From NCBI GenBank assembly GCA_049304035.1, contig JBAQNR010000007.1, positions 4,548 through 68,547 of the forward strand: DNA of 64,000 nucleotides. Direction: 5' to 3'. Both the position numbers and the translations under genes were made by a program. This document shows positions 524-51,875 of the stretch, piece after piece (within the stretch, counting starts at the first letter, position 1; the number at the start of each line of letters is the position of its first letter). The notes under the pieces were generated by a model that ran no database searches, was not told the origin of the DNA, and saw only the letters and a list, made by a program, of their open reading frames with translations. The DNA comes from Microgenomates group bacterium. Lineage in GTDB: Bacteria; Patescibacteriota; Microgenomatia; UBA1406; GWC2-37-13.

Positions 524-547
524 TTGATAAAAGATAGATTTTATTCA
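524..547. repeat. AT-palindrome family copy (TGAATAAAA-N-TTTTATCAA)
   Basis: ttgataaaagatagattttattca; contains stop codon of 545-820 ORF. Confidence 0.6.
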
Positions 548-820
548 GGAAGTTCGGACGAATTCTTCAAATAATTCTATTGCCGCATCATTTGTCAAAG
601 TTTCCTCGTTTCCATATTTCTCGAAGTCTCCAACAAAACTCGCACTGGTTGGATAAAAACTCGGTCTTCCCTCTTCCAGTCCGACTATTTCACAAGCAAT
701 ATCGTATTGATTTGTTTTTCCATTGTTCCTGTGGGACATGGTATAAAATGCTTCATATACAAATCCACCATAAATACTTCTTCGATGAATTCCATTGAAC
801 TCAATTTCAATTTTTTCCAT
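545..820 (-). CDS. hypothetical protein (91 aa)
   Basis: track ORF trimmed to ATG 820 with GGAGGGAG SD. Confidence 0.6.
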   Translation of the reverse strand: MEKIEIEFNGIHRRSIYGGFVYEAFYTMSHRNNGKTNQYDIACEIVGLEEGRPSFYPTSASFVGDFEKYGNEETLTNDAAIELFEEFVRTS

Positions 821-1040
821 TTTGTTCTCCCTCCGATAATCCATCATCGAATTCAATGGTGTTGTCATCTGTAAACGTAAAGGTAATTGATTTTTCTCCT
901 TTCTTTTGTGCTTGACGAATTGCGTCTGCGATTTTACAGGGATTTTCTAATCCAGAAGACTCAACGTTCAATGCGCCAACTCGAACCATGCTCAATACCT
1001 CTATCCACGTGGGTTCTAAATTGATATATTTTGTTTCCAT
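807..1040 (-). CDS. hypothetical protein (77 aa)
   Basis: track ORF; GAGGAGAA SD upstream; 14-nt overlap with next gene. Confidence 0.6.
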   Translation of the reverse strand: METKYINLEPTWIEVLSMVRVGALNVESSGLENPCKIADAIRQAQKKGEKSITFTFTDDNTIEFDDGLSEGEQNGKN

Positions 1041-1052
1041 ATAATTCTCCTC

Positions 1053-1208
1053 TTAGTATAACACAGAAATACCAAAGTTATTGTTCCACAAAGAAAATCC
1101 TATAAGTGTTACCATTCTTTGCTTTCTGTTTATTGTAAAGAATTCCATTTCAAAAGCGGAAACGTGTTCTAAATCTTCAAAATAATATCCACCAAAGTTT
1201 TTTATCAT
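1053..1208 (-). CDS. small hypothetical protein (51 aa)
   Basis: ATG overlaps stop of upstream gene (TAATG); fills a gap in the array; below track cutoff. Confidence 0.4.
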   Translation of the reverse strand: MIKNFGGYYFEDLEHVSAFEMEFFTINRKQRMVTLIGFSLWNNNFGISVLY

Positions 1209-1417
1209 TATTCTCCTTTGACTAAAATTCCACCATTATCAAAAACAATGGTTGCAAAACAAAAAGGGCATGAGTGATATAGAGTGTCACCTATTGCATC
1301 ATTCACGTCCTCCCACTCGTCCGATAAAGCCCCACTACTGTTCAAGAGTTGATTTTGAAAATAAGCCGAAACACAAATAACATATTCGAGGCGCGAATCA
1401 CAGTGAGGACAATTCAT
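1208..1417 (-). CDS. zinc-ribbon protein (69 aa)
   Basis: CPHC ... CPFC pairs; GGAGAAAA SD. Confidence 0.6.
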   Translation of the reverse strand: MNCPHCDSRLEYVICVSAYFQNQLLNSSGALSDEWEDVNDAIGDTLYHSCPFCFATIVFDNGGILVKGE

Positions 1418-1418
1418 T

Positions 1419-1622
1419 TTATTTTTCTCCTTTATATTTTGGTAATTCTATCCAGATGCACCGAAATGGAACCATATATCCTATCTTATTCTTTTCTTCC
1501 TCTGTAAAAATGGTGGCAGAACCTAATTCAACATATCCAAAGTCTGCCTCCCAAAATCCATAACATTCTTCTTCCCAATACATATTATTCTTTGATTCTT
1601 CGGGATTGAATAAAACATACAT
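1419..1622 (-). CDS. hypothetical protein (67 aa)
   Basis: track ORF; GAGGAG SD. Confidence 0.6.
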   Translation of the reverse strand: MYVLFNPEESKNNMYWEEECYGFWEADFGYVELGSATIFTEEEKNKIGYMVPFRCIWIELPKYKGEK

Positions 1623-1623
1623 T

Positions 1624-1818
1624 TTATTGACACTCCTCTGTCGTCAAAATTCTGATGTCCTTCATGCAATTTGTACAACTCAATATTATTTTTGTTGGAG
1701 TTATAGTTGTGTTGGATAGCGTTCCCACGCATTCTGCTCCGCAATGAGGACAATCAAAGTTCATCCAAAAATTAATTTCTTTTGATTTGAAGATTTTAAA
1801 CTCTTCTTCTTTTTTCAT
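1624..1818 (-). CDS. zinc-ribbon protein (64 aa)
   Basis: CPHC ... CTNC; GAGGAG SD. Confidence 0.6.
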   Translation of the reverse strand: MKKEEEFKIFKSKEINFWMNFDCPHCGAECVGTLSNTTITPTKIILSCTNCMKDIRILTTEECQ

Positions 1819-2069: not shown

Positions 2070-2130
2070 TATAATCTTACCATGATTGCCTAGTAAAGTC
2101 AAGTTTACTAGGCAAATAAGCAGATTATAT
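2070..2130 (-). promoter_or_regulatory. PeSL-like class I: stem-loop with -35 in loop plus extended -10 promoter
   Basis: minus strand TTGACT (2102-2097), 17 nt, TGgTAAGAT (-10 at 2079-2074); perfect 10-bp arms 2088-2097/2104-2113 flank the -35; outer TATAATCT/AGATTATA inverted flanks. Confidence 0.7.
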
Positions 2131-2151
2131 TGATAAAATTGTTCTTTTATC
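2131..2151. repeat. AT-palindrome family copy
   Basis: gataaaa-ttgttc-ttttatc, 7-bp perfect arms; holds stop of 2147-2389. Confidence 0.6.
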
Positions 2152-2389
2152 TATTCTTATCGATAACGTCTAGAATTTCATCCAATAGCGCATCTTCCGA
2201 CACGTTCAAAGCATCACAAATTTCTCCAACTTCCAACGGGTCTTCAAAGTGATATTCTGAGTTGAAAATATCCCATTGTTTTTCAACAACAATAACTTCT
2301 TTATAACTTTCCCCGAATTCAATATCAATTCGATAAGAACGCTCAATGATTGGCTCCCAACAATTTCCTAGTGAAATATTGTATTCCAT
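2147..2389 (-). CDS. hypothetical protein (80 aa)
   Basis: track ORF; GAGGAGAAGG SD. Confidence 0.6.
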   Translation of the reverse strand: MEYNISLGNCWEPIIERSYRIDIEFGESYKEVIVVEKQWDIFNSEYHFEDPLEVGEICDALNVSEDALLDEILDVIDKNR

Positions 2390-4187: not shown

Positions 4188-4229
4188 TTTTCCTCCAAAA
4201 ATGTGAATAAAATCTCAGTTTTATCAATA

Positions 4230-4505
4230 CTATTTCTCGAATGTCATTCCTTGATAGTTTGTCACGATTGTGTAAACATATGAAAAATCCTCAACAACCA
4301 TGATTTCAATTCCAGAATCTTTCAACATTTCTTCAATGTAATGTTGAACATCATCTCTACATTCTGAAAGCAAAGAAAATTCGAATCCACAATCCCTTTC
4401 TTCAGATAGATAATATTCAAACATAATGCGCCTTGTACGCATGTTAATCCTGATGCGTATGGGAGTTTCCACCTCGTCATATTCACAATCAATAATGAAG
4501 TCCAT
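4230..4505 (-). CDS. hypothetical protein (91 aa)
   Basis: track ORF trimmed to ATG 4505 with AAAGGAGAAAA SD. Confidence 0.6.
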   Translation of the reverse strand: MDFIIDCEYDEVETPIRIRINMRTRRIMFEYYLSEERDCGFEFSLLSECRDDVQHYIEEMLKDSGIEIMVVEDFSYVYTIVTNYQGMTFEK

Positions 4506-4530
4506 TTTATTTTTTCTCCTTTTTATGATT

Positions 4531-6070: not shown

Positions 6071-6093
6071 TGAATAAAATCGTACTTTTATCA
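6071..6093. repeat. AT-palindrome family copy
   Basis: tgaataaaatcgtacttttatca. Confidence 0.6.
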
Positions 6094-6094
6094 A

Positions 6095-7304: not shown

Positions 7305-7328
7305 TGAATAAAAGCGTCATTTTATTTA
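7305..7328. repeat. AT-palindrome family copy
   Basis: tgaataaaagcgtcattttattta; loop similar to copies at 7751 and 7941. Confidence 0.6.
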
Positions 7329-7750: not shown

Positions 7751-7776
7751 TGAATAAAATAGCGTCATTTTATTCG
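7751..7776. repeat. AT-palindrome family copy (perfect 9-bp arms)
   Basis: gaataaaat-agcgtc-attttattc. Confidence 0.7.
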
Positions 7777-7940: not shown

Positions 7941-7964
7941 TGAATAAAATAGTGTTTTTATTCA
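7941..7964. repeat. AT-palindrome family copy (perfect 9-bp arms)
   Basis: tgaataaaa-tagtgt-ttttattca. Confidence 0.7.
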
Positions 7965-10594: not shown

Positions 10595-10786
10595 TTAAAA
10601 CTCAGTTATTCTTGTAATAATTTCTATTTTGCCACCGTCATAAATTTCTAGGTCATAAATATACCAAATGCTTTTGCGATAGTATTTAGATTTACAAAAT
10701 ATTTTTATCGCATCAAAATATCCTTCGGCAATAATCGGAAATCTAACATTTTCAACATCCAGTTCTTTTATAATATAAGTATTCAT
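10595..10786 (-). CDS. hypothetical protein (63 aa)
   Basis: track ORF; AAAGGATAA SD. Confidence 0.55.
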   Translation of the reverse strand: MNTYIIKELDVENVRFPIIAEGYFDAIKIFCKSKYYRKSIWYIYDLEIYDGGKIEIITRITEF

Positions 10787-10798
10787 AAAATTATCCTT

Positions 10799-10972
10799 TT
10801 ATTCAGGTTTTTCTTCTGCCAATTGTATCGTTTCAATCATTGAAACACACACTTCTTCTAAATTTTCACATGGCTTTTTATCATTGAAATCTAGTTTTCC
10901 ATCTTCCCATATTTCAAAATATAAAAAATATCCCACTTCTTTTATTACAACTTCAAATTTACAGGATTTCAT
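10799..10972 (-). CDS. hypothetical protein (57 aa)
   Basis: track ORF trimmed to ATG 10972 with AAGGAGAAAA SD. Confidence 0.55.
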   Translation of the reverse strand: MKSCKFEVVIKEVGYFLYFEIWEDGKLDFNDKKPCENLEEVCVSMIETIQLAEEKPE

Positions 10973-11717: not shown

Positions 11718-11741
11718 TTGATAAAAGATGTATTTTATACA
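11718..11741. repeat. AT-palindrome family copy
   Basis: ttgataaaagatgtattttataca; holds stop of 11735-12058. Confidence 0.6.
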
Positions 11742-12068: not shown

Positions 12069-12092
12069 TTGATAAAATAAGTGTTTTATTTA
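12069..12092. repeat. AT-palindrome family copy
   Basis: ttgataaaataagtgttttattta. Confidence 0.6.
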
Positions 12093-12277
12093 CATTTACA
12101 ACCGTAATTTTCCAGTTGATAAGCATTACAAGAACATTTCTTTTTATTTTTTCTTTCATATTTATCAATTTTTTCTTGCGCCTTTCGAATCATTTCAAAA
12201 CACAATAAAATTGCAATTTGACAGTCTAAGTCCGTATCATCGAACCACTTAATTGAAGGTGCAGTTTTTATAGCCAT
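12086..12277 (-). CDS. hypothetical Cys-rich protein (63 aa)
   Basis: track ORF; AAAGGAGTA SD. Confidence 0.55.
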   Translation of the reverse strand: MAIKTAPSIKWFDDTDLDCQIAILLCFEMIRKAQEKIDKYERKNKKKCSCNAYQLENYGCKCK

Positions 12278-12513
12278 AAAATACTCCTTTTATTCAGGTA
12301 AATCAACTAAGCTCAAAGAATATATTTGTACCGCGTGGACTTTTTTGTAATCCTGTCCATCAAAAGATTCCTTAAATGTTCTTAAGGCTTACAGCGCACT
12401 TTCTCCGTTCCAAATCGTCTCATAATTGAAACTTTCTTCAAAATAACTAATCACCCATTTATTTTTCATTCTCTCAATCATATTATCTCCTTGTGGATAG
12501 ATTCCACATTTTA

Positions 12514-12825
12514 TTAATAACACAACCCAAAATTCATTTGAACGAATTCTTCCAACTCTTTTCTTGTTGGATTGTCGATTGCCAATGCGGCATGAAACCA
12601 TCCCTTGAATTCAAAATGACGAGGAATAAGGTTTTTATCGCCAATTCTTCCACAACCAAGAATGTCTTCAAAAACACCCGCCTTAAGCTCTGCGTTTTCT
12701 TTCCAGATGAAGATACATTCTCCATAATATTGTTTTCCATGATAATGTGGAGCAGAAACAAATCCAATCCTGTTTTCTTTTGGAATATCGCATAATTCTC
12801 GAAGCGTTTCTTCTGATATGTTCAT
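12514..12825 (-). CDS. hypothetical protein (103 aa)
   Basis: track ORF; AGAGGAG SD. Confidence 0.6.
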   Translation of the reverse strand: MNISEETLRELCDIPKENRIGFVSAPHYHGKQYYGECIFIWKENAELKAGVFEDILGCGRIGDKNLIPRHFEFKGWFHAALAIDNPTRKELEEFVQMNFGLCY

Positions 12826-12837
12826 AAAACTCCTCTT

Positions 12838-13041
12838 TTATTCATATTCGACTGTTACTTTTTTGCCATAAATATACTTTTTCAAGTCCTCTTGAGTTTC
12901 GTTCTCCGTGAGAGAGGCCGTCTCGGGAATACTTTCCCACGCTTTCCAAAACCAAAGAAAACGTTCTCTTTCTTCTGCCACAAAATGCCACAACATAAGA
13001 ATTCGATTGAATTTTTGTACAATTCTATATTCTTTTTTCAT
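12838..13041 (-). CDS. hypothetical protein (67 aa)
   Basis: track ORF; ACGGAGG SD. Confidence 0.6.
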   Translation of the reverse strand: MKKEYRIVQKFNRILMLWHFVAEERERFLWFWKAWESIPETASLTENETQEDLKKYIYGKKVTVEYE

Positions 13042-13184
13042 GATAAAACCTCCGTTTTATCAACATATTGAAAATAAAACCACTCCATAAAATCCGGAAA
13101 ATCTGTTTCAGTATATTTGATATTATTTCGCCTACAATATTCGCCAGCAATTTCGTGCAATAGTTCGTAAATTTTCCTGTACAT
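13038..13184 (-). CDS. small hypothetical protein (48 aa)
   Basis: track ORF trimmed to ATG 13184 with AAAGGAGAAAA SD; the longer track version reads through the regulatory hairpin. Confidence 0.45.
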   Translation of the reverse strand: MYRKIYELLHEIAGEYCRRNNIKYTETDFPDFMEWFYFQYVDKTEVLS

Positions 13185-14146: not shown

Positions 14147-14169
14147 TGAATAAAAACCTCATTTTATCA
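14147..14169. repeat. AT-palindrome family copy
   Basis: tgaataaaaacctcattttatca. Confidence 0.6.
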
Positions 14170-14184
14170 ATTGTAGAATACAAC

Positions 14185-14832: not shown

Positions 14833-14856
14833 TTGATAAAACTGGTATTTTATTCA
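14833..14856. repeat. AT-palindrome family copy
   Basis: ttgataaaactggtattttattca. Confidence 0.6.
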
Positions 14857-15017: not shown

Positions 15018-15046
15018 TTTACTATCTCCTAGATAAATTCTCTATT

Positions 15047-15283
15047 TTATCCATTAAACGGGATTTCTACTCCCAAAACCTCGGTACCGTTTTCTTTAGT
15101 CCATTTTGCTACAACCAAAAACGCCGGTTTAGTTTTCCAAGAAAAACAATGTTCACGAATTTCCTCCACCTCCGAAATACCGAAAACATAAGGCTCTTCA
15201 CCCTCACTTTTTTCATGATTATACCAGAATTTCTCTCTTGTTAAATTATTTCCTCTTGCGTCTTTTACAATGTATCCGTACAT
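15047..15283 (-). CDS. hypothetical protein (78 aa)
   Basis: track ORF; GGAGGATAAAA SD. Confidence 0.6.
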   Translation of the reverse strand: MYGYIVKDARGNNLTREKFWYNHEKSEGEEPYVFGISEVEEIREHCFSWKTKPAFLVVAKWTKENGTEVLGVEIPFNG

Positions 15284-15315
15284 ATTTTTATCCTCCAGAT
15301 AAAATGATGATTTTA

Positions 15316-15588
15316 TTAATTCTTATAAAACGGATGTAAAAGATTGATAGACCTTTCAGAGAGTTTGTAACTATTTTCTTCAACTCCTTTTATCAAAAAG
15401 CCTTCCTGAACCAAATCATCGTGCCAAAACTTCATTTTTATAAATTCAAACTCTTCAGGATTTTTCTCAATAGAATCTTTCAAAAGAAAAACAAGAATAT
15501 TTTCTTTCTCGCTAGCCTGTCGAGTTTTTCCTTCTAACATCCCATAGGGATGTTGTGTTGGAATATTGAAATTTTTTGGTTTTAACAT
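15316..15588 (-). CDS. hypothetical protein (90 aa), possible winged-helix
   Basis: track ORF (TTG) trimmed to ATG 15588 with AAAGGAGAAAA SD; wHTH guess based only on the LVQEGFLIKG...YKLSERS pattern. Confidence 0.55.
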   Translation of the reverse strand: MLKPKNFNIPTQHPYGMLEGKTRQASEKENILVFLLKDSIEKNPEEFEFIKMKFWHDDLVQEGFLIKGVEENSYKLSERSINLLHPFYKN

Positions 15589-15630
15589 TTTTTCTCCTTT
15601 TTCTGCATAAAATTGTTGTTTTATCAATAG

Positions 15631-15654
15631 TGAATAAAATCCCCCTTTTATTCA
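15631..15654. repeat. AT-palindrome family copy with GGGGG loop
   Basis: tgaataaaatcccccttttattca; a second weaker copy lies at 15605-15626. Confidence 0.6.
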
Positions 15655-17112: not shown

Positions 17113-17134
17113 TGAATAAAATCAGCCTTTTATA
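17113..17134. repeat. AT-palindrome family copy
   Basis: tgaataaaatcagccttttata. Confidence 0.55.
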
Positions 17135-17369
17135 GATTCTTTACCAAAGAAAATCCATTTGCTTCCAAAACCTCAATGCAATTTGACATAATAAAATCCT
17201 CGGCGCTATCAAAAATCCTCATTGGATTTCTTTCCTTTAGAGGATATTTATACCACAAAATGCATCTTCCATCTGAAAATAATTCAAATGTAAAAAAGGA
17301 ACCGACAGAATACTTTTCATATTCCTTTATTTTGTTCGTAATTTCGCACAAATATTCATTTTGCCACAT
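17130..17369 (-). CDS. hypothetical protein (79 aa)
   Basis: track ORF trimmed to ATG 17369 with CGGAGGAAAA SD. Confidence 0.6.
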   Translation of the reverse strand: MWQNEYLCEITNKIKEYEKYSVGSFFTFELFSDGRCILWYKYPLKERNPMRIFDSAEDFIMSNCIEVLEANGFSLVKNL

Positions 17370-17382: not shown

Positions 17383-17406
17383 TTGATAAAATACAAATTT
17401 TATTTA
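17383..17406. repeat. AT-palindrome family copy
   Basis: ttgataaaatacaaattttattta. Confidence 0.6.
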
Positions 17407-17574: not shown

Positions 17575-17598
17575 TTGATAAAACATAGATTTTATTGA
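17575..17598. repeat. AT-palindrome family copy
   Basis: ttgataaaacatagattttattga. Confidence 0.55.
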
Positions 17599-18877: not shown

Positions 18878-18900
18878 TTGATAAAATGGTTGTTTTATTC
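18878..18900. repeat. AT-palindrome family copy
   Basis: ttgataaaatggttgttttattc. Confidence 0.6.
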
Positions 18901-19092
18901 GGGAAACCAAGAGTATGAGCAAACAATAATAATATCTCCACGATAATCTGCTTTATCAATTTCTTTTAGCGCTTCTTCTTCTGATTTGTATCCATAGATA
19001 TTGAAAACACTTTTTCCCCATCTTTTTGGATGTTTTAGCAATCCGTTTTCATCAATATCATAAACAATATATCTTTTTTCACGTTTATGCAT
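18895..19092 (-). CDS. hypothetical protein (65 aa)
   Basis: track ORF; GGAGGACTAAAA SD. Confidence 0.6.
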   Translation of the reverse strand: MHKREKRYIVYDIDENGLLKHPKRWGKSVFNIYGYKSEEEALKEIDKADYRGDIIIVCSYSWFPE

Positions 19093-20646: not shown

Positions 20647-20670
20647 TTGATAAAATATTAGTTTTATTTA
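20647..20670. repeat. AT-palindrome family copy
   Basis: ttgataaaatattagttttattta. Confidence 0.6.
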
Positions 20671-20853: not shown

Positions 20854-20877
20854 TTGATAAAATAATGTTTTTATCTA
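20854..20877. repeat. AT-palindrome family copy
   Basis: ttgataaaataatgtttttatcta. Confidence 0.6.
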
Positions 20878-21101: not shown

Positions 21102-21125
21102 TTGATAAAATGGATATTTTATTTA
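21102..21125. repeat. AT-palindrome family copy
   Basis: ttgataaaatggatattttattta. Confidence 0.6.
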
Positions 21126-22676: not shown

Positions 22677-22700
22677 TTGATAAAACGAAGATTTTATACA
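22677..22700. repeat. AT-palindrome family copy
   Basis: ttgataaaacgaagattttataca. Confidence 0.6.
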
Positions 22701-25229: not shown

Positions 25230-25253
25230 TTTATAAAATTCTGGTTTTATTCA
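25230..25253. repeat. AT-palindrome family copy
   Basis: tttataaaattctggttttattca. Confidence 0.55.
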
Positions 25254-25690: not shown

Positions 25691-25714
25691 TGTATAAAAT
25701 CCCCGTTTTATTCA
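25691..25714. repeat. AT-palindrome family copy with CGGGG loop
   Basis: tgtataaaatccccgttttattca. Confidence 0.6.
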
Positions 25715-32370: not shown

Positions 32371-32582
32371 GTTGGAGCAATGAGCCCGAAAAAGATTTTA
32401 TGTCAAGTTTAAAAGCGTTGATGGTTAGATATAACGTAAAGTTGGAAAGAACACTGGTTGAAACATTAGATGGTGATTTTTCGTTATGGGCATTTTGTAA
32501 TGATGAGCCAGTTCGAGCAAATGAAATCTATCTGACCTTGGATGAGATTGGCGAAGAAGTCGGATACGAGAAGGCTGAATAA
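32367..32582 (+). CDS. hypothetical protein (71 aa)
   Basis: track ORF trimmed to ATG 32367 (AAAGGAGCG SD; ATGA overlap). Confidence 0.6.
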   Translation: MSWSNEPEKDFMSSLKALMVRYNVKLERTLVETLDGDFSLWAFCNDEPVRANEIYLTLDEIGEEVGYEKAE

Positions 32583-32599
32583 AATAGCGGTTTTATCCA
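32576..32599. repeat. AT-palindrome family copy (plus-arm)
   Basis: tgaataaaatagcggttttatcca, then TAGGAGAG SD. Confidence 0.6.
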
Positions 32600-32836: not shown

Positions 32837-33148
32837 TTGGATTCTAAATCTATTGGGATGTTGTTATGGATTTTAGGTGCTTTGGTAGTAAACGATTTGA
32901 TTGTACTTTACACTGGACATTTGGTATACAAGAAACTACTGGGAATTATAGAATTTATGTGTGACATAAAAGTGATGCACTGCGAACGTTGCCACAGGCC
33001 AACGTTGGTTTATGGTGGAACCGATGCTTTAAAAACATGTTCGTACTGCACTCCTCAATACTGTGATGATTGTGGAACAAGCCATGGAATCGTTGACGAC
33101 GGATACGTTGGATACAAAAATAAATTGAAATCAAAAAAGTCTGTATGA
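32837..33148 (+). CDS. membrane protein with C-terminal zinc ribbon (103 aa)
   Basis: GAGGAGA SD then TTG 32837 (alternative ATG 32858); CERCH...CSYC...CDDCG. Confidence 0.55.
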   Translation: MDSKSIGMLLWILGALVVNDLIVLYTGHLVYKKLLGIIEFMCDIKVMHCERCHRPTLVYGGTDALKTCSYCTPQYCDDCGTSHGIVDDGYVGYKNKLKSKKSV

Positions 33149-33165
33149 AACTCTGATTTTATTCA
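33146..33165. repeat. AT-palindrome family copy (degenerate left half)
   Basis: tgaaactctgattttattca, then TAGGAGAAC SD. Confidence 0.45.
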
Positions 33166-33616: not shown

Positions 33617-36256
33617 TTGCGGAAACTACAGCAGTTTTATATCATGTCGTTGCAATCTGCAAGAATCAAGAAGGTTGGAAAAATAGTTTCAACACTTCAA
33701 GATGCGAGAAAAAATAACGAGATTATTTCTGCGGGCGACTCCCAGTTATTTCGGACGTTGAGAAAGGTGTCTAATCACCCCTATGAGGAATCCGAACTGT
33801 TGCGGTTGTGGAATGAAAGAACAAGATTAAAGAAAAAGAAAAACAAAAAAGAGAACGTAAGCAGGATGTCCGAACTTACCTCAAAGATTGACGAGATGTT
33901 ATTTGTTCCAGAGATTGTTTCCATAACCTTCAATCACGTTGCACACTACAAGCAATTTGTGAAAGAGGGCGTGTGGATAAATGGAACAAAATTTGTCCGA
34001 TTTATGGGTAGTGCGGGGCAATTGAGGCGTTCAACCGTCCTTTTTATTCAAGAACAATATTTGGAAAAGGTAAGAGAGATTATCGAGAACGGGTTCAATA
34101 AAGAGGTTCCAGTAAATTTTGGGAAGTTCAATGCGTACTACTCGCTGGTTTCAAGCAGTAGTATTCCTGTCTCGACGCCCAACTACGTTGTCATTCCAGA
34201 TTTGGAAGAAACAAGAGATACTGAGGTTGACTTTGTTGAAGACGACAATGAAACAGTAAACAGAAAAGTTCTTCCCATCGTTCACAATCTTTTTGATGGT
34301 GCTGGAATTATCTCCATGGATTTTGCAAAGCAATGGAGTTTCGATTTAGGATTGGATTATGATGCGTGTTCTTTTATTTTCAGGGCTCCTTGGTGCAAGG
34401 GTCTGTTGACTTCGTTTCCTTTTAGGACACTTGCTGCTGAACTCGGAGTTTCAGAGATTACCGATATTTATGGGGATGTTCACCAGATAGACAACGTTGA
34501 TGTTGTTATGACAAAATCCCAGTTTAAACTGAGTGAGGGGTATTCTTCTATTGCTGAACACAAAACAAACTCCCTAGAGAACAATCTATCTTGGAACGTT
34601 ACAAGAGTCAATCCGAATAAAGACAAAAAATCTTTTATGAGTTCCTACCAGTATATTCAGGTTCTCAAGGATGACGTAGATATAGAAAAACTATGCCGAC
34701 CAACATTGGACTACTTCAATGATGTGTCAATTTTGGACGGAGAAAAAGCGCTAATCTATTTGATGGGTTCTGATATAGAAGACGACTTGAAGTTCAACAA
34801 AATAGAAAATCCGATAGTGAAAGCGCTGTGTTTGAACAAAGATGTGATTCAAGACCCCCACATTAGAAAATCGATTATAAAAAGTCTCAACAGAAAGATA
34901 CGAGATAGTTACTTCGGAAAACTCCTGATAAGCCCAGGAAATTATCAGTTTGTTTTGTTTGACCCCTATGCGATAGCGCAACACGCCTTCGGGTTCGAGG
35001 CAACTGGTCTTTTGGGTGCAGGAGAGCATTATTCACAATACTGGAATAACATGGGCTCAAATCAGGTTGTTGCAGGCAGAAGTCCTTTGACATGGCGCTC
35101 AGAGATGTTGAGGTTGGACTTCAAGAACAACCAGAAGATGGAGAAATATTTTGGGCATCTGTATAGTGGAATAGTGTTTAATGTTCATTCGCCAGATATG
35201 ATGTGCCTTGCGGACGGAGATGGGGACGGAGACGCAGTATTCACATCCGATAATGACGAATTGTTGAAGAACTGTTATGGCGGGGTTCCTGTGACATACA
35301 ACAGAAAGGCGACAACAAAGAATAAAATTTCATACGATGAGTTGTCGGTTTTTGATGCAATGAGTTTTAATTCAAAGATTGGTCTGGTAACGAACAACAG
35401 TAGCACATACTATTCCATGTTGTCTTTATTTCCAGAAGATTCCAAAGAACACCAACTAATTCTAAAGAGACTTGTTATTTGCAGAAAGCAACAGGGAATG
35501 GAAATCGATAAAACAAAAGGTCTTCTTATCGACAGACTCCCAGAATGGAATAAGAAATCAGACGACCCAGTTCACAACAACATCCTGACAAATCGAAGAC
35601 CAATGTGGATGAACTGGCTCTACCCCCATAGAAAGAAAGATTACGACTCCTATAATGAAATGTACGATGTTTATTGCTACGCCAAATACGGGTTCGGTAT
35701 AGACTTTTTATTGAAGAAGGAAGTCGTCACAGAAGAGCAATCAAAAATTATAGAAAGACATAGGAAGTTTTGTCCAGTGGTTGTTGGTTCAACCTCTATA
35801 ATGCAGAGGATTTCAGATTACATGGTTTCAGAGGTAAAAGAACTTAAGGTGTCGGTAAACAACAAAGAATTTGACTATTCGGTATATTTCGATAAATCGG
35901 TTGGTCTAAACGAATCTATTCGTGAACCGCTAAGAGACTTGATGAAATTATATAATAAGTTGAAAAAGAACCTGTTCTTCTCTCCAGACGGAGAAAAATC
36001 GGAAATCGTAGAGTTCATAAAGAACAAGGCTTTTGAAATAAGTTCAGACTTGTCCGAATTGACCAATATGGCTCTGGATATAAACTATGGAACGGGATAC
36101 TCTCAGTCATTCGTGTGGGAAATATTTTCCGATGGAATATTGGACGCCATGAAAAAGAAAACCAGGACTTTTGATTTTCCTGTCCCAAAGGAAAACGGAA
36201 GGATTTCGTTTGCCGGAAGAAGGTTCAACATGGTAAAAGGTGGTGTCGATGAGTAA
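33617..36256 (+). CDS. YonO/RdRP-like two-barrel single-subunit RNA polymerase
   Basis: FIFRAPWCKGLL (compare FQIRxxGxKGvv of DPBB1 in cellular RdRPs) and VVAGRSPLTWRSE...IVFNVHSPDMMCLADGDGDGDAVFTS (compare RxPxxxxGD...DxDGD catalytic loop, related to beta-prime NADFDGD); AGGAGG SD 10 nt before TTG 33617. Confidence 0.7.
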   Translation: MRKLQQFYIMSLQSARIKKVGKIVSTLQDARKNNEIISAGDSQLFRTLRKVSNHPYEESELLRLWNERTRLKKKKNKKENVSRMSELTSKIDEMLFVPEIVSITFNHVAHYKQFVKEGVWINGTKFVRFMGSAGQLRRSTVLFIQEQYLEKVREIIENGFNKEVPVNFGKFNAYYSLVSSSSIPVSTPNYVVIPDLEETRDTEVDFVEDDNETVNRKVLPIVHNLFDGAGIISMDFAKQWSFDLGLDYDACSFIFRAPWCKGLLTSFPFRTLAAELGVSEITDIYGDVHQIDNVDVVMTKSQFKLSEGYSSIAEHKTNSLENNLSWNVTRVNPNKDKKSFMSSYQYIQVLKDDVDIEKLCRPTLDYFNDVSILDGEKALIYLMGSDIEDDLKFNKIENPIVKALCLNKDVIQDPHIRKSIIKSLNRKIRDSYFGKLLISPGNYQFVLFDPYAIAQHAFGFEATGLLGAGEHYSQYWNNMGSNQVVAGRSPLTWRSEMLRLDFKNNQKMEKYFGHLYSGIVFNVHSPDMMCLADGDGDGDAVFTSDNDELLKNCYGGVPVTYNRKATTKNKISYDELSVFDAMSFNSKIGLVTNNSSTYYSMLSLFPEDSKEHQLILKRLVICRKQQGMEIDKTKGLLIDRLPEWNKKSDDPVHNNILTNRRPMWMNWLYPHRKKDYDSYNEMYDVYCYAKYGFGIDFLLKKEVVTEEQSKIIERHRKFCPVVVGSTSIMQRISDYMVSEVKELKVSVNNKEFDYSVYFDKSVGLNESIREPLRDLMKLYNKLKKNLFFSPDGEKSEIVEFIKNKAFEISSDLSELTNMALDINYGTGYSQSFVWEIFSDGILDAMKKKTRTFDFPVPKENGRISFAGRRFNMVKGGVDE

Positions 36257-37058: not shown

Positions 37059-37418
37059 GTGGTAAATAAAAAGAAAAGTGAGAAGGAATTTCTCGACACG
37101 GATAGTTTTGTAACCGTCTTGGCTCAGAAAGCGGGGTTTACAAAAGGAGACATAAAGGTTGTAATAAACACCTTTAAAGATATTTTAGAAGAGTGCGTAA
37201 AAAACGACATTGATGTTGACCTGAAGGGACTCTTCCATATGAGCGTGATTGATATTGAATATACAAAACCACCCGGAATTGTCGCATTTAAGGGCGGAAC
37301 GGATTTCAATAGGAACGCGAAAAGGGTCAAGTTTGTGACACCCTTAAATCTACGCGATATTGCGAAGGCAAGTTCGGAGAAACAAAACAATGAATCTTCT
37401 AACCGAGAGGTTGTGTGA
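37059..37418 (+). CDS. HU/IHF-family DNA-binding protein
   Basis: FVTVLAQKAGFTKGDIKVVINTFKDILEECV...VDLKGLF...RVKFVTPLNLRD matches the HU fold pattern; GTG start with AAAGGAGA SD. Confidence 0.65.
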   Translation: MVNKKKSEKEFLDTDSFVTVLAQKAGFTKGDIKVVINTFKDILEECVKNDIDVDLKGLFHMSVIDIEYTKPPGIVAFKGGTDFNRNAKRVKFVTPLNLRDIAKASSEKQNNESSNREVV

Positions 37419-37593
37419 AATAGATAGAATATCTAAACAAATTCAAGAGGCAAAGATATTGCTATGTCAAGTTGAATGGCTCTATGATACTGGAGCCAAA
37501 ACATATAGATGCCCGATATGTCTATGTCTGAAAGATGGTGGGCATTCGGAAGATTGTAAATTGAATGAGTTTTTGAATGAAAACGAAGTATGA
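37390..37593 (+). CDS. small CxxC protein (67 aa)
   Basis: track ORF trimmed to ATG 37390 (GGAGAAAC SD); CPICLC...C. Confidence 0.5.
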   Translation: MNLLTERLCEIDRISKQIQEAKILLCQVEWLYDTGAKTYRCPICLCLKDGGHSEDCKLNEFLNENEV

Positions 37594-37614
37594 ATAAAAT
37601 GGTAATTTTATAAA
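37591..37614. repeat. AT-palindrome family copy (plus-arm)
   Basis: tgaataaaatggtaattttataaa; TGA is the stop of 37390-37593. Confidence 0.6.
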
Positions 37615-37934: not shown

Positions 37935-37937
37935 AAC

Positions 37938-44426: not shown

Positions 44427-44458
44427 CAAAACCCCCTATTGATAAAATAGGGGTTTTA
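44427..44458 (+). terminator. terminator hairpin (overlaps an AT-palindrome copy at 44439-44462)
   Basis: aaaaccccctatt/aataggggtttt stem with one bulge, followed by TTTTAT. Confidence 0.55.
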
Positions 44459-44484
44459 TACATAGTAACAATATTCAGATTCAT

Positions 44485-47387: not shown

Positions 47388-47390
47388 ACA

Positions 47391-47414
47391 TAAATAAAAC
47401 ACGTATTTTATTCA
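47391..47414. repeat. AT-palindrome family copy (plus-arm)
   Basis: taaataaaacacgtattttattca. Confidence 0.6.
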
Positions 47415-47473
47415 TACTATAAAAAAACAAAATTCTTTGTTTTTTCCGTTAATAGCGGGCAAGGAGGTTTTAA

Positions 47474-48190: not shown

Positions 48191-48195
48191 AACTA

Positions 48196-48219
48196 TGAAT
48201 AGAAACATTGTTTTATTCG
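48196..48219. repeat. AT-palindrome family copy (plus-arm)
   Basis: tgaatagaaacattgttttattcg, then GAGGTG SD. Confidence 0.5.
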
Positions 48220-48228
48220 AGGTGTGTC

Positions 48229-49167
48229 ATGGATGATAGGCGGCGCAGACTGATTGGGGCGGGGGTGTTGGGGCGAGGCGGGGCAACATTCGCTCGCACC
48301 ATTAGTCCAACGTGGGGCAGTGAACTACTGTCAGACCCCGGACTTGAGGGAATATACACGGCTGGATTATGTGCTGGATTTTCCAAAGGAGGAAGCCCAA
48401 CCGTGTCGCAATCTGCTGATGTGCATGGCGGGGCAAAGGCTCAGGAATTCACGGCAGTCGCAAACAGCAACGGCATCCATTATGGCTCACTCGCGTCTGT
48501 TGTGGGGTTTGAGAAAATATCCGCTTGGTCAAAACGCACCGCAGGGGCAAGTGGAAAAACCAATATCCAACATATCACAACCTTTGGAACAATAAAACAA
48601 ATTTTTAGTATAACTTGGGCAGATTACACGCAAATAGAACTCGTGGCGAGGAATAATGGGGCATCAGACTTATATCCATGTATTAACCGTGATGCCTCTG
48701 TATTTGACACGGTTATCGTAGACGACATCAGCCACAAGAAATTAACTCTATCAACAGCACTAGCCACTCCCAAAACGCATGACAGTGATGCGATTGTCAG
48801 AGCGGGAGTAACCGTGCCTGTTTGCTATCAGGGGGGCGTGGCAATGAATCTGAACAGCCTATCTACTCCGACTTATGGAGTATTGGCTTATGTGGATGGG
48901 AATCCGCTTGGAACTGTTGGGACTTATGCCGCCACTCTCGACCAAATTATCAATAACGTATGGACACGCCTTGTCCATGCAGTAATAACCTATGTCGCAG
49001 GTGCGAGTATCGAGGTACGAAACGTTGGTAATACCTATCAACTCTGGTACAACGGCGCACAAATTGGAGCAGACCAGACCATCAGTGACGCGACCATTAG
49101 GGCTGGGACGATTGCCACTCAATTCGCCACATCACCCAATGTTATTTTTGCGAGTTACGCGCCATGA
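48229..49167 (+). CDS. tail fibre/receptor-binding-like protein, paralogue of 44561-45502
   Basis: track ORF trimmed to ATG 48229; C-terminal similarity to 44561-45502; the most GC-rich stretch of the window. Confidence 0.5.
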   Translation: MDDRRRRLIGAGVLGRGGATFARTISPTWGSELLSDPGLEGIYTAGLCAGFSKGGSPTVSQSADVHGGAKAQEFTAVANSNGIHYGSLASVVGFEKISAWSKRTAGASGKTNIQHITTFGTIKQIFSITWADYTQIELVARNNGASDLYPCINRDASVFDTVIVDDISHKKLTLSTALATPKTHDSDAIVRAGVTVPVCYQGGVAMNLNSLSTPTYGVLAYVDGNPLGTVGTYAATLDQIINNVWTRLVHAVITYVAGASIEVRNVGNTYQLWYNGAQIGADQTISDATIRAGTIATQFATSPNVIFASYAP

Positions 49168-50147
49168 ATGGATTTGAGGTAAGCACCAACACCTACGCCG
49201 TTAAAGAACTGCTTGGACTTGGCGGATCAATCACCAACAATACGGGCGCAACGGGAGCAGATGGATTCCTTCCAAAAATAGGTAGATGGCTAAACGTCTA
49301 CAGCCTTGACAGATACGCCGTCACCAACAAAGGGATTGATGGCAAGGACTCCTGGTATAGCCTGATACGACTGCAAACAGACGTTATTGACCTTGCGCCA
49401 GATTTGATTATTTACGACTGCGCTATCAACGATAACGACCAGTCGCCTTATGCAAAATGCGAGGAAGCGGTAATCCGCAGGCTAAGAACTGCCCTGCCAG
49501 ACGCGAAAATAGCAGGCATTATTTTCGGGACAACTGCCAACAGGCTCGGAACTGACCCAACCAACACAAAAGCAACAACAGCGGCGCAGGTGCGGGAAAT
49601 TCTCACACATTATGGGATTTTATATGCAGACCAAACTGCCGCCGTTGTTACTAGTGTTAACGCAGGCACTTATACACTCGCTCAAATATTTGCAGACACC
49701 ATCCATCCCGCTGATGTAGGTCACTTGCTAGGCAAACAAACTTTGGATGATGTAATTCCAACGGCATTAACCCAAACATTGCCTTCCCTGCCTACACCAT
49801 TGCATGATACTGCCGGAGATTATTCTCAAACCCCAATAATTAGAGTCGCAAATGATAATGATGGCGAGACGGGTGTATGGGCAGAGAGTGGAACAGACGA
49901 GGCATCAAGTACCGCAGATTCAACAATCACATGGACAGGAGCATTTTCAAGTTTTGGATTTGATACTGGATACGGAGCCTCGCAAACATATGCATGGCAA
50001 ATAGATGGCGGAGCATGGACAAATGTTTCTCCATCCACAGTGGGATATACCAATAACCTGCTATGGAGTGGAGCGCGGGGAGCACATACTGTGGTTGTGA
50101 AAGTTGTAACTGGAACCATTACGGTTAAAAGATTTTTAGCTGTATAA
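49164..50147 (+). CDS. SGNH/GDSL-type hydrolase domain tail protein (putative esterase)
   Basis: IIYDCAINDN (GxND block) and ADTIHPADVGH (DxxH block); ATGA-coupled to the previous gene. Confidence 0.55.
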   Translation: MNGFEVSTNTYAVKELLGLGGSITNNTGATGADGFLPKIGRWLNVYSLDRYAVTNKGIDGKDSWYSLIRLQTDVIDLAPDLIIYDCAINDNDQSPYAKCEEAVIRRLRTALPDAKIAGIIFGTTANRLGTDPTNTKATTAAQVREILTHYGILYADQTAAVVTSVNAGTYTLAQIFADTIHPADVGHLLGKQTLDDVIPTALTQTLPSLPTPLHDTAGDYSQTPIIRVANDNDGETGVWAESGTDEASSTADSTITWTGAFSSFGFDTGYGASQTYAWQIDGGAWTNVSPSTVGYTNNLLWSGARGAHTVVVKVVTGTITVKRFLAV

Positions 50148-50163
50148 AATAAGCATTTTATTA
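50143..50163. repeat. AT-palindrome family copy (plus-arm)
   Basis: tataaaataagcattttatta. Confidence 0.5.
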
Positions 50164-50217
50164 ATACACAAAGGATAAAATGAAAAATAAAAATCTTAGA
50201 AAGGAGGTAAAAAATTA

Positions 50218-51858
50218 ATGGCAAATACAAAAACAATTAAAAAGAAAGTTGCCCCTCCTCAAGAAAAAAAAGTTCTTTTAACAGAGCAGGAAACGTGGGA
50301 TGTCTTGCGGTTTGCATCTGAGTTATATGGCGGACAGATGGGATATAATCCCATGCTTGTAAATGCAAGAATGCAAGACATGACAATGAATATAAAGAAT
50401 GGAACAAGCGTTCAAATAGACGCGGCTCTCGCTGAACCAAAATTGAATGAGGCTTTTCTTACTGGACAATCTGAGTTCTTTGAATTAACGTCGATGCTGT
50501 ATAAGCGTATATTGTATTATCTGAGCGGAATCCCCGCTTTTGATTTTACTTATACTTGTACAAATGCAACTGATAAGGATTATAAGTCCCCCGCGTATAA
50601 AAAAGATTTAGAAGCAGTAAAAGAATTTTTTGATAAATTCAATCCAAAACAAGAGTTCAGAACAATTCTAAAGCAAATGGTTCGTCAAGAAACATTTTTT
50701 GGATTCTTCAGAGATGATGGGGAAAGATATTTGTTTCAGGAGATTCCAGAAAATTATTCAATGATAACTGGTCGTTGGGAAAACGGATTGCTTTGGGATT
50801 TGAACATGTATTTATTTTTACAACCCGGATTTGTTCTCGATATGTTTCCTGATATTTTCAAGAAATTATGGAAGAAAGCGTTTGGTAATAAACAACCCAA
50901 GGAAATATATGACCCCGCTACCGGCGTTGATAAAAGAGATTCTTCTTGGATTTACTGGGTTCAGACATCACCAAAAGATGGTTTTTGGTGTTTCAAACTG
51001 CAACCAGAACTAGCAACGAGAATTCCTTTCTTAGCACCAATGTTCCCAGATGTTGTTTTACAAAAAACAATGCGGGAATTGCAAACCAACACCTATATTG
51101 CAGCTGCGTCGAAGATAATCTCGGGTCGTGTTCCCATGCTGAATAAAGACACGAAAGCGGCGGTGAGAGACAGTGTTGCTATTTCTCCAGAGTTGCTTGG
51201 AAAATTCCTTGCTCTTATGAAATCAGGTTTATCTGATGCAATCAAGGTAACCTCAAGCCCATTGGAAGACCAAGCGGCAATTGAGTTCTCCGGTGCCGAT
51301 TCTGATTTTTATCAGAATTATTTAAAAACAACAACCTCATCTTCTGGTGTGAACTCACGCTTGATTTACACTCTTGATAAGAATAATGCGGTTGAATCAC
51401 AACTATCAATTAACGTTGATGAGTTTTTGATGTTTGGTTTATATCCTCAGTTTGAAAATTTCTTAGATTATCAAACGAACAAGTTGACAAAGAAATTTAA
51501 GTTTAAATTCAAATTTGAAGGTAGTGAATTCTATACCAATAGAAAAGAGAGATTTGATACTCAGATGTCTCTTATTCCTTTGGGTATAGTTATGCCACAA
51601 AAAATTGCGGCGGCTATTGGAATGTCTCCATTTGCTTTTATTAGACAAATTGAAGAATCAAAAGCAATGGGATTTACCGATATGCTGACTCCAATAGAAA
51701 CAGCGATGGGTGGATTGGCTGGAGCGGGCGGAAAAACGAAAGGGTCAAACCCATCGGGCAAAGAAGGAGCGCCTAAAAAAGATGCTTCGGAACTGAGTGA
51801 AGGTGGAGAAAATACTCGTGACGCCGCAGGCAACGCTGGACGTGGGGGAGATGAATAA
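50218..51858 (+). CDS. putative portal protein (546 aa)
   Basis: size and position at the start of the head module; Gly-rich C-terminal tail; no motif-level support. Confidence 0.5.
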   Translation: MANTKTIKKKVAPPQEKKVLLTEQETWDVLRFASELYGGQMGYNPMLVNARMQDMTMNIKNGTSVQIDAALAEPKLNEAFLTGQSEFFELTSMLYKRILYYLSGIPAFDFTYTCTNATDKDYKSPAYKKDLEAVKEFFDKFNPKQEFRTILKQMVRQETFFGFFRDDGERYLFQEIPENYSMITGRWENGLLWDLNMYLFLQPGFVLDMFPDIFKKLWKKAFGNKQPKEIYDPATGVDKRDSSWIYWVQTSPKDGFWCFKLQPELATRIPFLAPMFPDVVLQKTMRELQTNTYIAAASKIISGRVPMLNKDTKAAVRDSVAISPELLGKFLALMKSGLSDAIKVTSSPLEDQAAIEFSGADSDFYQNYLKTTTSSSGVNSRLIYTLDKNNAVESQLSINVDEFLMFGLYPQFENFLDYQTNKLTKKFKFKFKFEGSEFYTNRKERFDTQMSLIPLGIVMPQKIAAAIGMSPFAFIRQIEESKAMGFTDMLTPIETAMGGLAGAGGKTKGSNPSGKEGAPKKDASELSEGGENTRDAAGNAGRGGDE

Positions 51859-51875
51859 AATCAATATTTTATTCA
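51852..51875. repeat. AT-palindrome family copy (plus-arm)
   Basis: tgaataaaatcaatattttattca; TGA is the portal stop. Confidence 0.65.

Follow-up and report, generated by a model that had tools for sequence, protein, structure and literature searches.

The 64-kb window analysed here, a whole stretch of 64,000 nucleotides from contig JBAQNR010000007.1 of an assembly filed under the Microgenomates group (GCA_049304035.1), carries a short AT palindrome with the core ATAAAA-N6-TTTTAT that recurs at gene junctions on both of its transcription arms. The G+C content of the window is 33-37% and, by our own gene calls, its coding share is 86.6%. The minus-strand arm, from position 1 to ~30.6 kb, holds ~90 small open reading frames (ORFs), and the plus-strand arm holds a large RNA polymerase-like gene, an exonuclease, a terminase, a portal and tail genes. 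Shine-Dalgarno sequences (SDs) in the window are strong and of the GGAGG type. Two of the plus-strand genes are referred to repeatedly:

33617..36256, plus strand: YonO-type single-subunit RNA polymerase (RNAP) gene, 879 amino acids, Pfam PF05183 (RdRP), E 6.8e-16
37059..37418, plus strand: divergent HU/IHF-like ORF, Pfam PF00216, E 3.3e-5

In tblastn comparisons, the polymerase matches SPbeta yonO with E 7e-29 and phage BUCT082 with E 2e-128 across 99% of its length, and local tblastn showed that the gene order yonO, yonJ (exonuclease), yonG and yonF (terminase, 38% identity) is common to the window and SPbeta. The closest isolates by portal protein are Enterocloster phages (33% identity). 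No DNA-level relative was found among INPHARED phages by megablast of the window, and an IMG/VR scan with the window RNAP as the single query found no close relative. A 40-mer from the window end has no occurrence in IMG/VR, GTDB genomes or JGI metagenomes, and the sole contig with an exact protein match measures 1.1 kb. Judging from the polymerase, the gene order, the portal matches and the GGAGG-type SDs, the window belongs to an uncultured siphovirus with a Firmicutes host, SPbeta-like but distant.

Copies of the palindrome were catalogued along the window, with exact core standing for an ATAAAA-N6-TTTTAT match in the window and other copies marked as variants:

524..547, minus strand: motif copy TGAATAAAAtctatcTTTTATCAA, exact core; junction 545/454, then a hairpin-TCATG module
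1607..1630, minus strand: motif copy TCAATAAAAtgtatgTTTTATTCA, exact core; overlaps junction 1624/1622
2130..2153, minus strand: motif copy TAGATAAAAgaacaaTTTTATCAA, exact core; then TATAAT and a hairpin-promoter module
4204..4227, minus strand: motif copy TTGATAAAActgagaTTTTATTCA, exact core; ATG 20 nt downstream
6071..6094, minus strand: motif copy TTGATAAAAgtacgaTTTTATTCA, exact core; then a hairpin-TCATG module
7305..7328, minus strand: motif copy TAAATAAAAtgacgcTTTTATTCA, exact core; stop is the core TAA, ATG at +19
7751..7776, minus strand: N8-spacer variant CGAATAAAAtgacgctaTTTTATTCA, the sole N8 copy; spacer is the 7305 spacer plus 'ta'
7941..7964, minus strand: motif copy TGAATAAAAacactaTTTTATTCA, exact core; perfect 9-bp arms
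10782..10805, minus strand: motif copy; GGA within N6, right arm overlapped by the ATG (TTTTATG)
11718..11741, minus strand: motif copy TGTATAAAAtacatcTTTTATCAA, exact core; then a hairpin-promoter module
12069..12092, minus strand: motif copy TAAATAAAAcacttaTTTTATCAA, exact core; ATG at +14
12273..12296, minus strand: motif copy with an SD (GGAG) in N6 and ATG overlapping the right arm
12494..12517, minus strand: degenerate copy TTAATAAAAtgtggaATCTATCCA, 2 mismatches; fills the 32-nt junction 12481/12514
12821..12844, minus strand: motif copy with an SD (GAGGAG) in N6 and ATG overlapping the right arm
13040..13063, minus strand: motif copy with an SD (GGAGG) in N6 and ATG 2 nt past the right arm
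14147..14170, minus strand: motif copy TTGATAAAAtgaggtTTTTATTCA, exact core
14833..14856, minus strand: motif copy TGAATAAAAtaccagTTTTATCAA, exact core
15030..15053, minus strand: 1-mismatch copy TGGATAAAAtagagaATTTATCTA; junction 15047/15017
15296..15319, minus strand: motif copy TTAATAAAAtcatcaTTTTATCTG, exact core
15604..15627, minus strand: motif copy TTGATAAAAcaacaaTTTTATGCA, exact core; in tandem with 15631
15631..15654, minus strand: motif copy TGAATAAAAgggggaTTTTATTCA, exact core; perfect 9-bp arms
17113..17136, minus strand: motif copy TCTATAAAAggctgaTTTTATTCA, exact core
17383..17406, minus strand: motif copy TAAATAAAAtttgtaTTTTATCAA, exact core
17575..17598, minus strand: motif copy TCAATAAAAtctatgTTTTATCAA, exact core
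18878..18901, minus strand: motif copy CGAATAAAAcaaccaTTTTATCAA, exact core; then a hairpin-TCATG module
20647..20670, minus strand: motif copy TAAATAAAActaataTTTTATCAA, exact core
20854..20877, minus strand: motif copy TAGATAAAAacattaTTTTATCAA, exact core
21102..21125, minus strand: motif copy TAAATAAAAtatccaTTTTATCAA, exact core
22677..22700, minus strand: motif copy TGTATAAAAtcttcgTTTTATCAA, exact core
25230..25253, minus strand: motif copy TGAATAAAAccagaaTTTTATAAA, exact core; then a long hairpin
25691..25714, minus strand: motif copy TGAATAAAAcggggaTTTTATACA, exact core; upstream CCC can pair with GGGG of N6 into a small terminator-like hairpin
32576..32599, plus strand: motif copy TGAATAAAAtagcggTTTTATCCA, exact core
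33142..33165, plus strand: 1-mismatch copy TGTATGAAActctgaTTTTATTCA; junction before 33178
37591..37614, plus strand: motif copy TGAATAAAAtggtaaTTTTATAAA, exact core; downstream of the RNAP/HU-like module
44439..44462, plus strand: motif copy TTGATAAAAtaggggTTTTATACA, exact core; N6 forms the 3' side of a stem CCCCTA/TAGGGG, so that the copy can also be read as an intrinsic terminator
47391..47414, plus strand: motif copy TAAATAAAAcacgtaTTTTATTCA, exact core
48196..48219, plus strand: 1-mismatch copy TGAATAGAAacattgTTTTATTCG
50141..50164, plus strand: motif copy TGTATAAAAtaagcaTTTTATTAA, exact core; before the portal gene
51852..51875, plus strand: motif copy TGAATAAAAtcaataTTTTATTCA, exact core; after the portal gene; perfect 9-bp arms

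Number, spacing and symmetry of the copies

Thirty-four exact cores were observed, against 0.11 +/- 0.31 expected from 100 dinucleotide-preserving shuffles, and composition-shuffling of the junction segments alone (11.6 kb) gave 0.18 copies (maximum 3). Because such shuffles give only 0.1-0.2 copies, AT-richness and the stop/SD context are insufficient to explain the motif; the observation made in a first-pass annotation of this DNA, which had proposed shuffled controls against this very explanation, is thereby upheld, the motif staying far above chance. More than 30 copies had been claimed there, in agreement with the 34 exact cores and with a total of ~39 sites once the N8 copy and four near-copies located at junctions (15033, 33145, 48199 and 12497) are counted in, and all 28 coordinates given in that annotation carry a copy.

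The two halves of the palindrome stand at a fixed distance from each other, with ATAAAA and TTTTAT separated by 6 nt in 34 cases, by 8 nt once (7754) and by 12 nt once, the latter probably by chance, and with no pairs at N2-5, N7 or N9-11. The spacer formerly given as N5-8 is thus to be read as N6, and the copy at 7751-7776, which had been credited with perfect 9-bp arms, has 8 perfect arm pairs around its N8 spacer; the perfect 9-bp arms of 7941-7964 were borne out. All 34 central spacers are distinct. In spite of the 86.6% coding share, the TAAAA-N6-TTTTA cores are located at gene junctions in 35 of 36 cases, the other one lying deep within an ORF, and 13 of the 15 minus-arm gaps of 30-45 nt consist of the motif and an SD, the remaining two being filled by the N8 copy and the degenerate copy.

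A position matrix built from copies oriented by transcription gave as consensus a 28-bp dyad, T-[A/C]-T-[G/T]-[A/G]-A-TAAAA-Y-N4-R-TTTTA-T-[C/T]-[A/C]-A-[T/C]-A, whose symmetry reaches ~11 bp per side, past the 9-bp arms first described, in an 11-6-11 layout. T-4 is present in 33 and A20 in 32 of 36 copies, and T-6/A22 are conserved too. A pyrimidine borders the A tract and a purine borders the T tract, the four central bases being free (47% G+C), and this dyad pattern with its flanking conservation holds equally in SPbeta copies. The core is palindromic and therefore without orientation, a mild asymmetry being confined to the 3-nt flanks, with TGA/TAA to the left and CAA/TCA to the right; the earlier statement that orientation follows transcription is retained weakly, for the flanks only, and even there most of the bias can be put down to the stop codon upstream.

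The left half-site had been described as usually containing the upstream stop codon; in 21 of 38 sites this codon is the TAA within ATAAAA and not a flanking TGA. The right half-site had been placed just before the next SD; the next start codon comes 14-23 nt past the core in 22 sites, is 46-265 nt away in 12 and overlaps or abuts the motif in four. At 10785, 12276 and 12824 the SD is inside N6 and the ATG overlaps the right arm (TTTTATG), and at 13043 the SD is in N6 and the ATG begins 2 nt past the right arm. Since the distance to the start codon varies from overlap to 265 nt, the upstream gene's end serves as the anchor of the motif, which keeps no fixed distance from the next ribosome-binding site.

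As RNA, the 24-nt element has a mean minimum free energy of -2.0 kcal/mol, with -0.35 kcal/mol added by the invariant 6-bp stem and 3 copies unfolded, and folding energy is alike for the sense and antisense strands. The covariation score for an 11-pair helix over 34 aligned copies was 0.026 vs 0.055 in shuffled alignments (499 of 500 shuffles at least as high), and paired cells in this alignment amounted to 74.3% vs 77.9% in shuffles, the variable pairs 4/25 and 5/24 being paired in 6 and 12 of the 34 copies, respectively. Our own permutation test on the window and SPbeta showed the same lack of pairing, which the first and last spacer bases likewise avoid, and oriented single-mismatch copies from several phages comprised 4 wobble-compatible vs 8 incompatible mirror-image changes. 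No Rfam 15 family at gathering score and no tRNA was detected in the window. With energy, covariation and wobble tests all negative, and no Rfam match, a stable RNA or DNA hairpin was rejected; conservation in the arms concerns their sequence and not a structure, each half varying independently of the other.

The palindrome in SPbeta and other phages

SPbeta itself has 34 copies of TAAAA-N6-TTTTA vs 0-4 at each other spacing from 0 to 14, and phi3T has 23 at N6 vs 0-2 at other spacings; two SPbeta segments compared with shuffles contained 16 vs 1.03 expected and 13 vs 0.57 expected. Most SPbeta copies are found at junctions in the early yop-yot small-gene arm and five in the late operon, which parallels the dense and sparse arms of the window. 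Two of the 34 are annotated in the SPbeta GenBank record, as generic stem-loops, and the motif goes without mention in the SPbeta review, the preprint on SPbeta relatives, the MrpR paper and the YonO paper, the 1999 genome paper lying outside this scope.

Another repeated intergenic element of the same lineage, SPBRE, is bound by the phage protein MrpR (YopR), which has a tyrosine-recombinase fold and gave ten peaks in chromatin affinity precipitation sequencing (ChAP-seq) of SPbeta, all at SPBRE promoter regions (PMC10516654). We re-derived SPBRE from the ten MrpR-bound promoters as ...acaaatacaaaTAATATGTATAtaat, located in the spacer of sigma-A promoters; the k-mers common to these promoters (AATATGTATAT and ACAAATAATATGTA) are distinct from the palindrome in sequence and position. 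Identity of the palindrome with SPBRE, the MrpR operator, was therefore rejected, given the different sequence, the ~10 copies, their location elsewhere in the genome and ChAP-seq peaks that miss the 34 SPbeta palindrome sites. The palindromes upstream of SPbeta yorE and aimR have an intrinsic terminator on one side and the next SPBRE promoter on the other, so that these copies are outside the mature mRNA if the terminator is efficient, whereas the one upstream of yosX is placed after the promoter and before the SD.

A search of the whole IMG/VR set with one exact 18-base version of the motif returned 56 loci, half of which hold further copies nearby; 25 of them encode homologues of SPbeta or window proteins, and one matches SPbeta-type Bacillus phages at 92% identity. 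Copies are also carried by the metagenomic relatives closest to the window, whose portal identity is 55%. Among the GTDB genome pattern matches listed, most are isolated matches due to chance, with 98 of 117 loci holding the seed copy alone and 16% having more copies nearby. A consistent asymmetric variant was observed in IMG/VR locus L012 (contig 3300022879_000002, with YopP/YopQ homologues), where ATAATA-N6-TTTTAT occurs on the given strand at 3837, 4107, 6463 and 6831, reading ATAAAA-N6-TATTAT in gene direction.

In the Enterocloster phage PMBT24 no N6 copies were found, and the junctions carry TTAAAA-N5-TTTTAA instead, 13 in the genome and 6 vs 0.18 expected in one half. Examples of these N5 sites in loci L064/L065, which have AT-rich 5-nt centres, are at 13405, 30055, 46962, 57121, 69972, 81016, 89333 and 92612; arm and spacing change together between PMBT24 and the N6 phages. 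The N5 variant argues for a co-evolving phage factor and not for a universal host signal. No enrichment of the motif was detected in Thomasclavelia phage TR-TP1 (29% G+C, same polymerase module), and the core proteins of motif-bearing phages are just 27-38% identical. Because SPbeta and phi3T have the motif, PMBT24 has a variant of it and the AT-rich TR-TP1 is not enriched for it, the motif is lineage-specific and dispensable, varying in arm and spacing between sub-lineages, rather than a by-product of base composition.

Neighbouring repeats and genes

A second intergenic repeat family, which we call hairpin-TCATG modules, is present on the minus strand at 482-511, 2081-2115, 6032-6061, 9320-9352, 13212-13244, 18823-18863 and 20243-20281, with related modules in the gaps 4505-4588 and 11631-11735. 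Each module comprises a perfect 11-12-bp hairpin of varying sequence, TCATG, and then an extended -10-like box (TGgTAAGAT or TGgTATTAT), and in three gaps the hairpin is nested within an outer inverted repeat TATAATCTKCTTAT...ATGGTAAGATTATA. About 6 of 10 modules are directly preceded by the AT palindrome. In T4-type phages, promoter-early stem-loops (PeSLs) form conserved cassettes of small size that separate minor accessory ORFs; they occur in hyperplastic regions and at mosaic boundaries (PMC4122927; PMC2839356). The palindrome is likewise a conserved intergenic element between small accessory ORFs, but PeSLs combine an early promoter and a terminator and the palindrome has neither promoter nor stable stem; the hairpin-TCATG modules resemble PeSLs more than the palindrome does, and look like PeSL-type promoter/stem-loop units splitting the minus arm into operons.

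A YonO-type RNAP gene upstream of an HU/IHF-like gene was observed in four distant phages, namely the window (33617-39360), PMBT24 (L064, 9612-13951), TR-TP1 (L187, 1200-6067) and SPbeta (L062, 7727-13875). The polymerase is directly followed by a 209-251-amino-acid ORF in the window, PMBT24 and TR-TP1, with a Zn-ribbon hint in the window copy, and the module is followed by an exonuclease gene in the window, TR-TP1 and SPbeta. This RNAP/HU-like module may be the initiation apparatus of the phage polymerase. The HU-like ORF of the window aligns with YonN and HBsu through the N-terminal helices only, with the beta-ribbon arm apparently absent in the alignment and a 30-amino-acid C-terminal extension.

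At the junction of the two arms there are two divergent near-consensus sigma-A-type promoters with TG extensions (30748-30720 and 30792-30820), and a third sigma-A-like promoter (37938-37966) lies ahead of the exonuclease gene. An ORF-poor stretch (~26.3-28.8 kb) contains, at 26776-26811, a G+C hairpin of 16 bp that is perfect and bidirectional. Accessory genes of the minus arm include those for an HD-domain protein (7322-7735), a radical SAM enzyme (8059-9030), a DUF7574 protein (16728-17093), a T4 gp30.3 homologue (21891-22343, E 1e-54) and a GNAT acetyltransferase (24460-24777). Between terminase and portal lies an island of higher G+C (46000-50200, 0.42-0.475 vs 0.33-0.39 elsewhere) with two ORFs without Pfam match (47474-48190 and 48208-49167) and a GDSL-family lipase/acylhydrolase (49164-50147), and upstream of the island, also between terminase and portal, are genes for a PhoH-like protein (42453-43265) and a GH25 lysozyme (43285-44043).

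A putative operator and its alternatives

Our tentative reading is that the palindromes are a multi-copy, stoperator-like operator set for a putative dimeric phage DNA-binding protein. Because of the fixed spacing, the long dyad symmetry, the independent half-sites and the free centre, the element would be a double-stranded DNA site read by a dimer or two-domain protein; dyad symmetry with a fixed half-site spacing and half-sites varying independently, which characterise operators, are both present. A site for a dimeric protein had been one of several suggestions in the first-pass annotation and is the best supported of them by spacing, symmetry and independent halves, its cognate protein being still putative. 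Each element would consist of two 11-12-bp half-sites, T-[A/C]-T-[G/T]-[A/G]-A-TAAAA-Y, with exactly 6 bp between TAAAA and TTTTA, and a homodimer or two-domain protein encoded by the phage lineage would recognise it as double-stranded DNA. Together, the ~38 junction sites would make up an operator set spanning the genome, akin to the stoperators of cluster A mycobacteriophages, and the protein, when bound between cistrons and immediately ahead of internal promoters, would act as a roadblock or boundary, punctuating or silencing transcription through the accessory-gene arrays. Protein binding, the phage origin of the protein and transcription control as the outcome are what we infer from the sequence.

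Operators of dimeric regulators, such as those of CRP (TGTGA-N6-TCACA) and 434 (ACAA-N6-TTGT) and the ComK box (AAAA-N5-TTTT), similarly consist of two short inverted half-sites spaced by roughly one turn of the helix, the protein making no contact with the centre, but their sequences are different and the window motif has longer conserved flanks and far more copies per genome. Repetitive extragenic palindromic (REP) and bacterial interspersed mosaic element (BIME) palindromes of enterobacteria and the RNase III sites of T7 are also palindromes after stop codons inside operons, but those are stable G+C-rich or long RNA stems, whereas the stems of the window motif are A-U only, unstable and without covariation. 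Stoperators are reported by Brown et al. (1997) to be placed in narrow gaps between genes, where many overlap a start or stop codon. The stoperators of L5, Bxb1 and TipsytheTRex are tens of copies of one short motif, spread genome-wide on both arms, and many intergenic copies on both arms are found here as well. As repressor sites present in large numbers across the phage genome, stoperators block elongation as well as initiation (PMC9283540). They are, however, asymmetric 13-bp sites bound by a two-domain monomer in an orientation-dependent manner, whereas the window motif is a symmetric 28-bp dyad with a 6-bp gap; MrpR, the SPbeta master repressor, is found only at its ten SPBRE peaks, the lineage and host phylum are unrelated, and the repressor of the window motif is putative.

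Several observations weigh against an operator. The N8 copy (7754) should not be tolerated by a rigid dimer, the ATAAAA-N6-TATTAT copies of L012 break the symmetry, the tight link to stop codons together with the frequent distance of 14-23 nt to the start could fit a function at the mRNA level, and the relative TR-TP1 does without the motif, which is therefore not needed for core functions. The master repressor MrpR does not occupy the palindrome sites, its ten peaks all being SPBRE, and among the 99 small ORFs of the window the only Pfam DNA-binding domain detected was that of the divergent HU-like protein. This ORF was considered as the binder and is not favoured, as it is divergent, apparently armless and without phage tblastn relatives, and as TR-TP1 has the same RNAP/HU-like module with no excess of the motif. 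The YonN protein of SPbeta is 68.5% identical to host HBsu, and sequence-specific binding is not reported in the YonN paper.

It is rather unlikely that the palindrome works at the RNA level, with AUAAAA-N6-UUUUAU in intercistronic mRNA as the target of a phage or host RNA-binding protein or endoribonuclease that would set mRNA processing or stability or tune downstream translation, like the RegB/RegA targets of T4 or the RNase III sites of T7. Such an element would agree with a strictly intergenic position adjoining translation signals (stop in the left arm in 21 of 38 sites, ATG at +14-23 nt in 22), with the 13 of 15 short minus-arm gaps made of motif and SD, with tolerance of the single N8 variant and with two one-mismatch window copies that have an A-to-G change in the 5' arm. 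However, the hairpin is essentially unstable and does not covary, symmetry covers positions that are unpaired within individual copies, and a conserved stem sequence with a free loop is the reverse of what most hairpin-binding proteins target; Rfam has no matching family. The hairpins for RNA processing or translational coupling proposed in the first-pass annotation are not sustained either, given the marginal energy, pairing below that of shuffles, the excess of wobble-incompatible over compatible changes across phages (8 to 4) and SPbeta copies located between terminator and promoter. A signal to the host RNAP or a YonO-type RNAP (promoter, pause site or a weak terminator that needs a factor), read from DNA or nascent RNA as an A-tract, a short spacer and a T-tract, seems improbable. 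In its favour, a YonO-type RNAP with as yet undefined promoter determinants is encoded in the lineage, the motif lies at gene 3' ends and ends in TTTTAT, a palindrome would work in both directions, and at 25691 and 44439 N6 pairs with upstream C-rich sequence into a terminator-like hairpin followed by TTTTAT. Yet the one start site mapped for YonO, upstream of yonK at SPbeta 2225998 (PMC5467207), which corresponds to SPBc2 60451 via the yomD-bhlB coordinates in PMC8270828, has no AT palindrome there or elsewhere in the yonN-yonK gap, and identity with the YonO promoter was rejected; so was a strict link to YonO, since PMBT24 has the N5 variant and TR-TP1 shows no enrichment. The four SD-containing window copies cannot be promoters for the gene concerned because its start codon overlaps or abuts the right arm, which, with the mapped YonO start, speaks against the phage-polymerase promoter suggested earlier. 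A sigma-70/sigma-A promoter was rejected on the same four copies and on the 6 bp between the blocks, as opposed to a -35/-10 geometry at 16-18 bp, and most SPbeta copies are in the early arm, where the recognised (MrpR-bound) promoters are of the sigma-A type with SPBRE. The resemblance of some copies to a T4 late promoter (TATAAATA at -10) is not above chance, with 10 matches vs 6.0 expected and 11 of 100 shuffles reaching 10. An intrinsic terminator was dismissed as well, the arms being A-T only, with the T run inside the arm, no G+C stem before a U-tract and no U-tract after the stem, and the earlier judgement that A-U-only stems are too weak for classical terminators stands; the exceptions are 25691, the only copy picked up by a terminator consensus scan, and 44439, recognised by eye, in both of which N6 finds a pairing partner upstream. 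At SPbeta yorE and aimR there is a canonical terminator ahead of the motif.

Quite improbable, too, is a module-boundary or recombination element, in which the palindrome would be a linker where accessory cassettes are exchanged, either through microhomology (as proposed for the PeSLs of T4-type phages) or through a tyrosine recombinase dedicated to the 11-6-11 site (as at dif/lox and integron attC). Core sites of tyrosine recombinases have an 11-6-11 layout in dif and 13-8-13 in loxP, and attC lies at the 3' ends of gene cassettes; the two inverted ~11-bp arms around a 6-bp centre in the window motif fit this architecture, the motif is concentrated in small accessory-gene arrays, SPbeta and its relatives encode tyrosine-recombinase-fold proteins of unknown role (YopP, YomM and, in PMBT24, a XerD-like protein), and several SPbeta/phi3T and SPbeta/IMG-VR homology blocks stop exactly at the far edge of a shared motif. 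SPbeta/phi3T endpoints fall within 12 bp of a motif in 10 of 51 cases vs 0.8 for random positions, but this 20% equals the share of early-arm junctions that carry the motif (an estimated ~22%), so there is no specific breakpoint enrichment, 80% of the breakpoints are without motif, and a recombination hot-spot is not supported. Besides, no two of the 34 central spacers are alike, scanning of proteins from the 64-kb window revealed no recombinase domain, and 16-28 bp is short for homologous exchange. A speculative variant, to which we assign only a slight chance, starts from the 11-6-11 layout in a lineage rich in recombinase-fold proteins, of which MrpR is already a known repressor: the palindromes could be an 11-6-11 core-site family of a domesticated tyrosine-recombinase-fold protein, a paralogue of MrpR/YopP, that would coat every loose gene junction of SPbeta-like phages, either as a genome-wide roadblock silencer of accessory arrays or as an integron-like system inserting and excising palindrome-SD-gene cassettes in a phage genome. 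That the motif has no function, as copies of one ancestral junction spread by cassette duplication or as a by-product of AT-rich stop/ribosome-binding sequence, is hardly credible: the neighbouring copies 7305 and 7751 do share a duplication-related spacer, and copies in loci L043 and L002 share 27 nt of upstream sequence, but shuffles preserving composition and context give 0.1-0.2 copies vs 34, unrelated spacers and flanking genes go together with invariant arms, the motif is kept between phages with core proteins 27-38% identical, and the AT-richer relative TR-TP1 is not enriched.

Read as an operator for a putative dimeric protein, the motif would represent a multi-copy intergenic operator or regulatory cassette, more sharply defined than when first described and present in the tractable SPbeta, a model temperate phage for 50 years whose regulation (arbitrium, MrpR/SPBRE, YonO) is under active study. 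It is a second SPbeta repeat, with more copies (34) than SPBRE, and is conserved to an uncultured relative whose nearest isolates infect Enterocloster. The motif also gives a simple sequence signature for SPbeta-like phages in metagenomes, as 25 of the 56 IMG/VR matches have homologues of SPbeta or window proteins, and it points to a missing trans-acting factor and a missing control layer over the small accessory-gene arrays of these phages.

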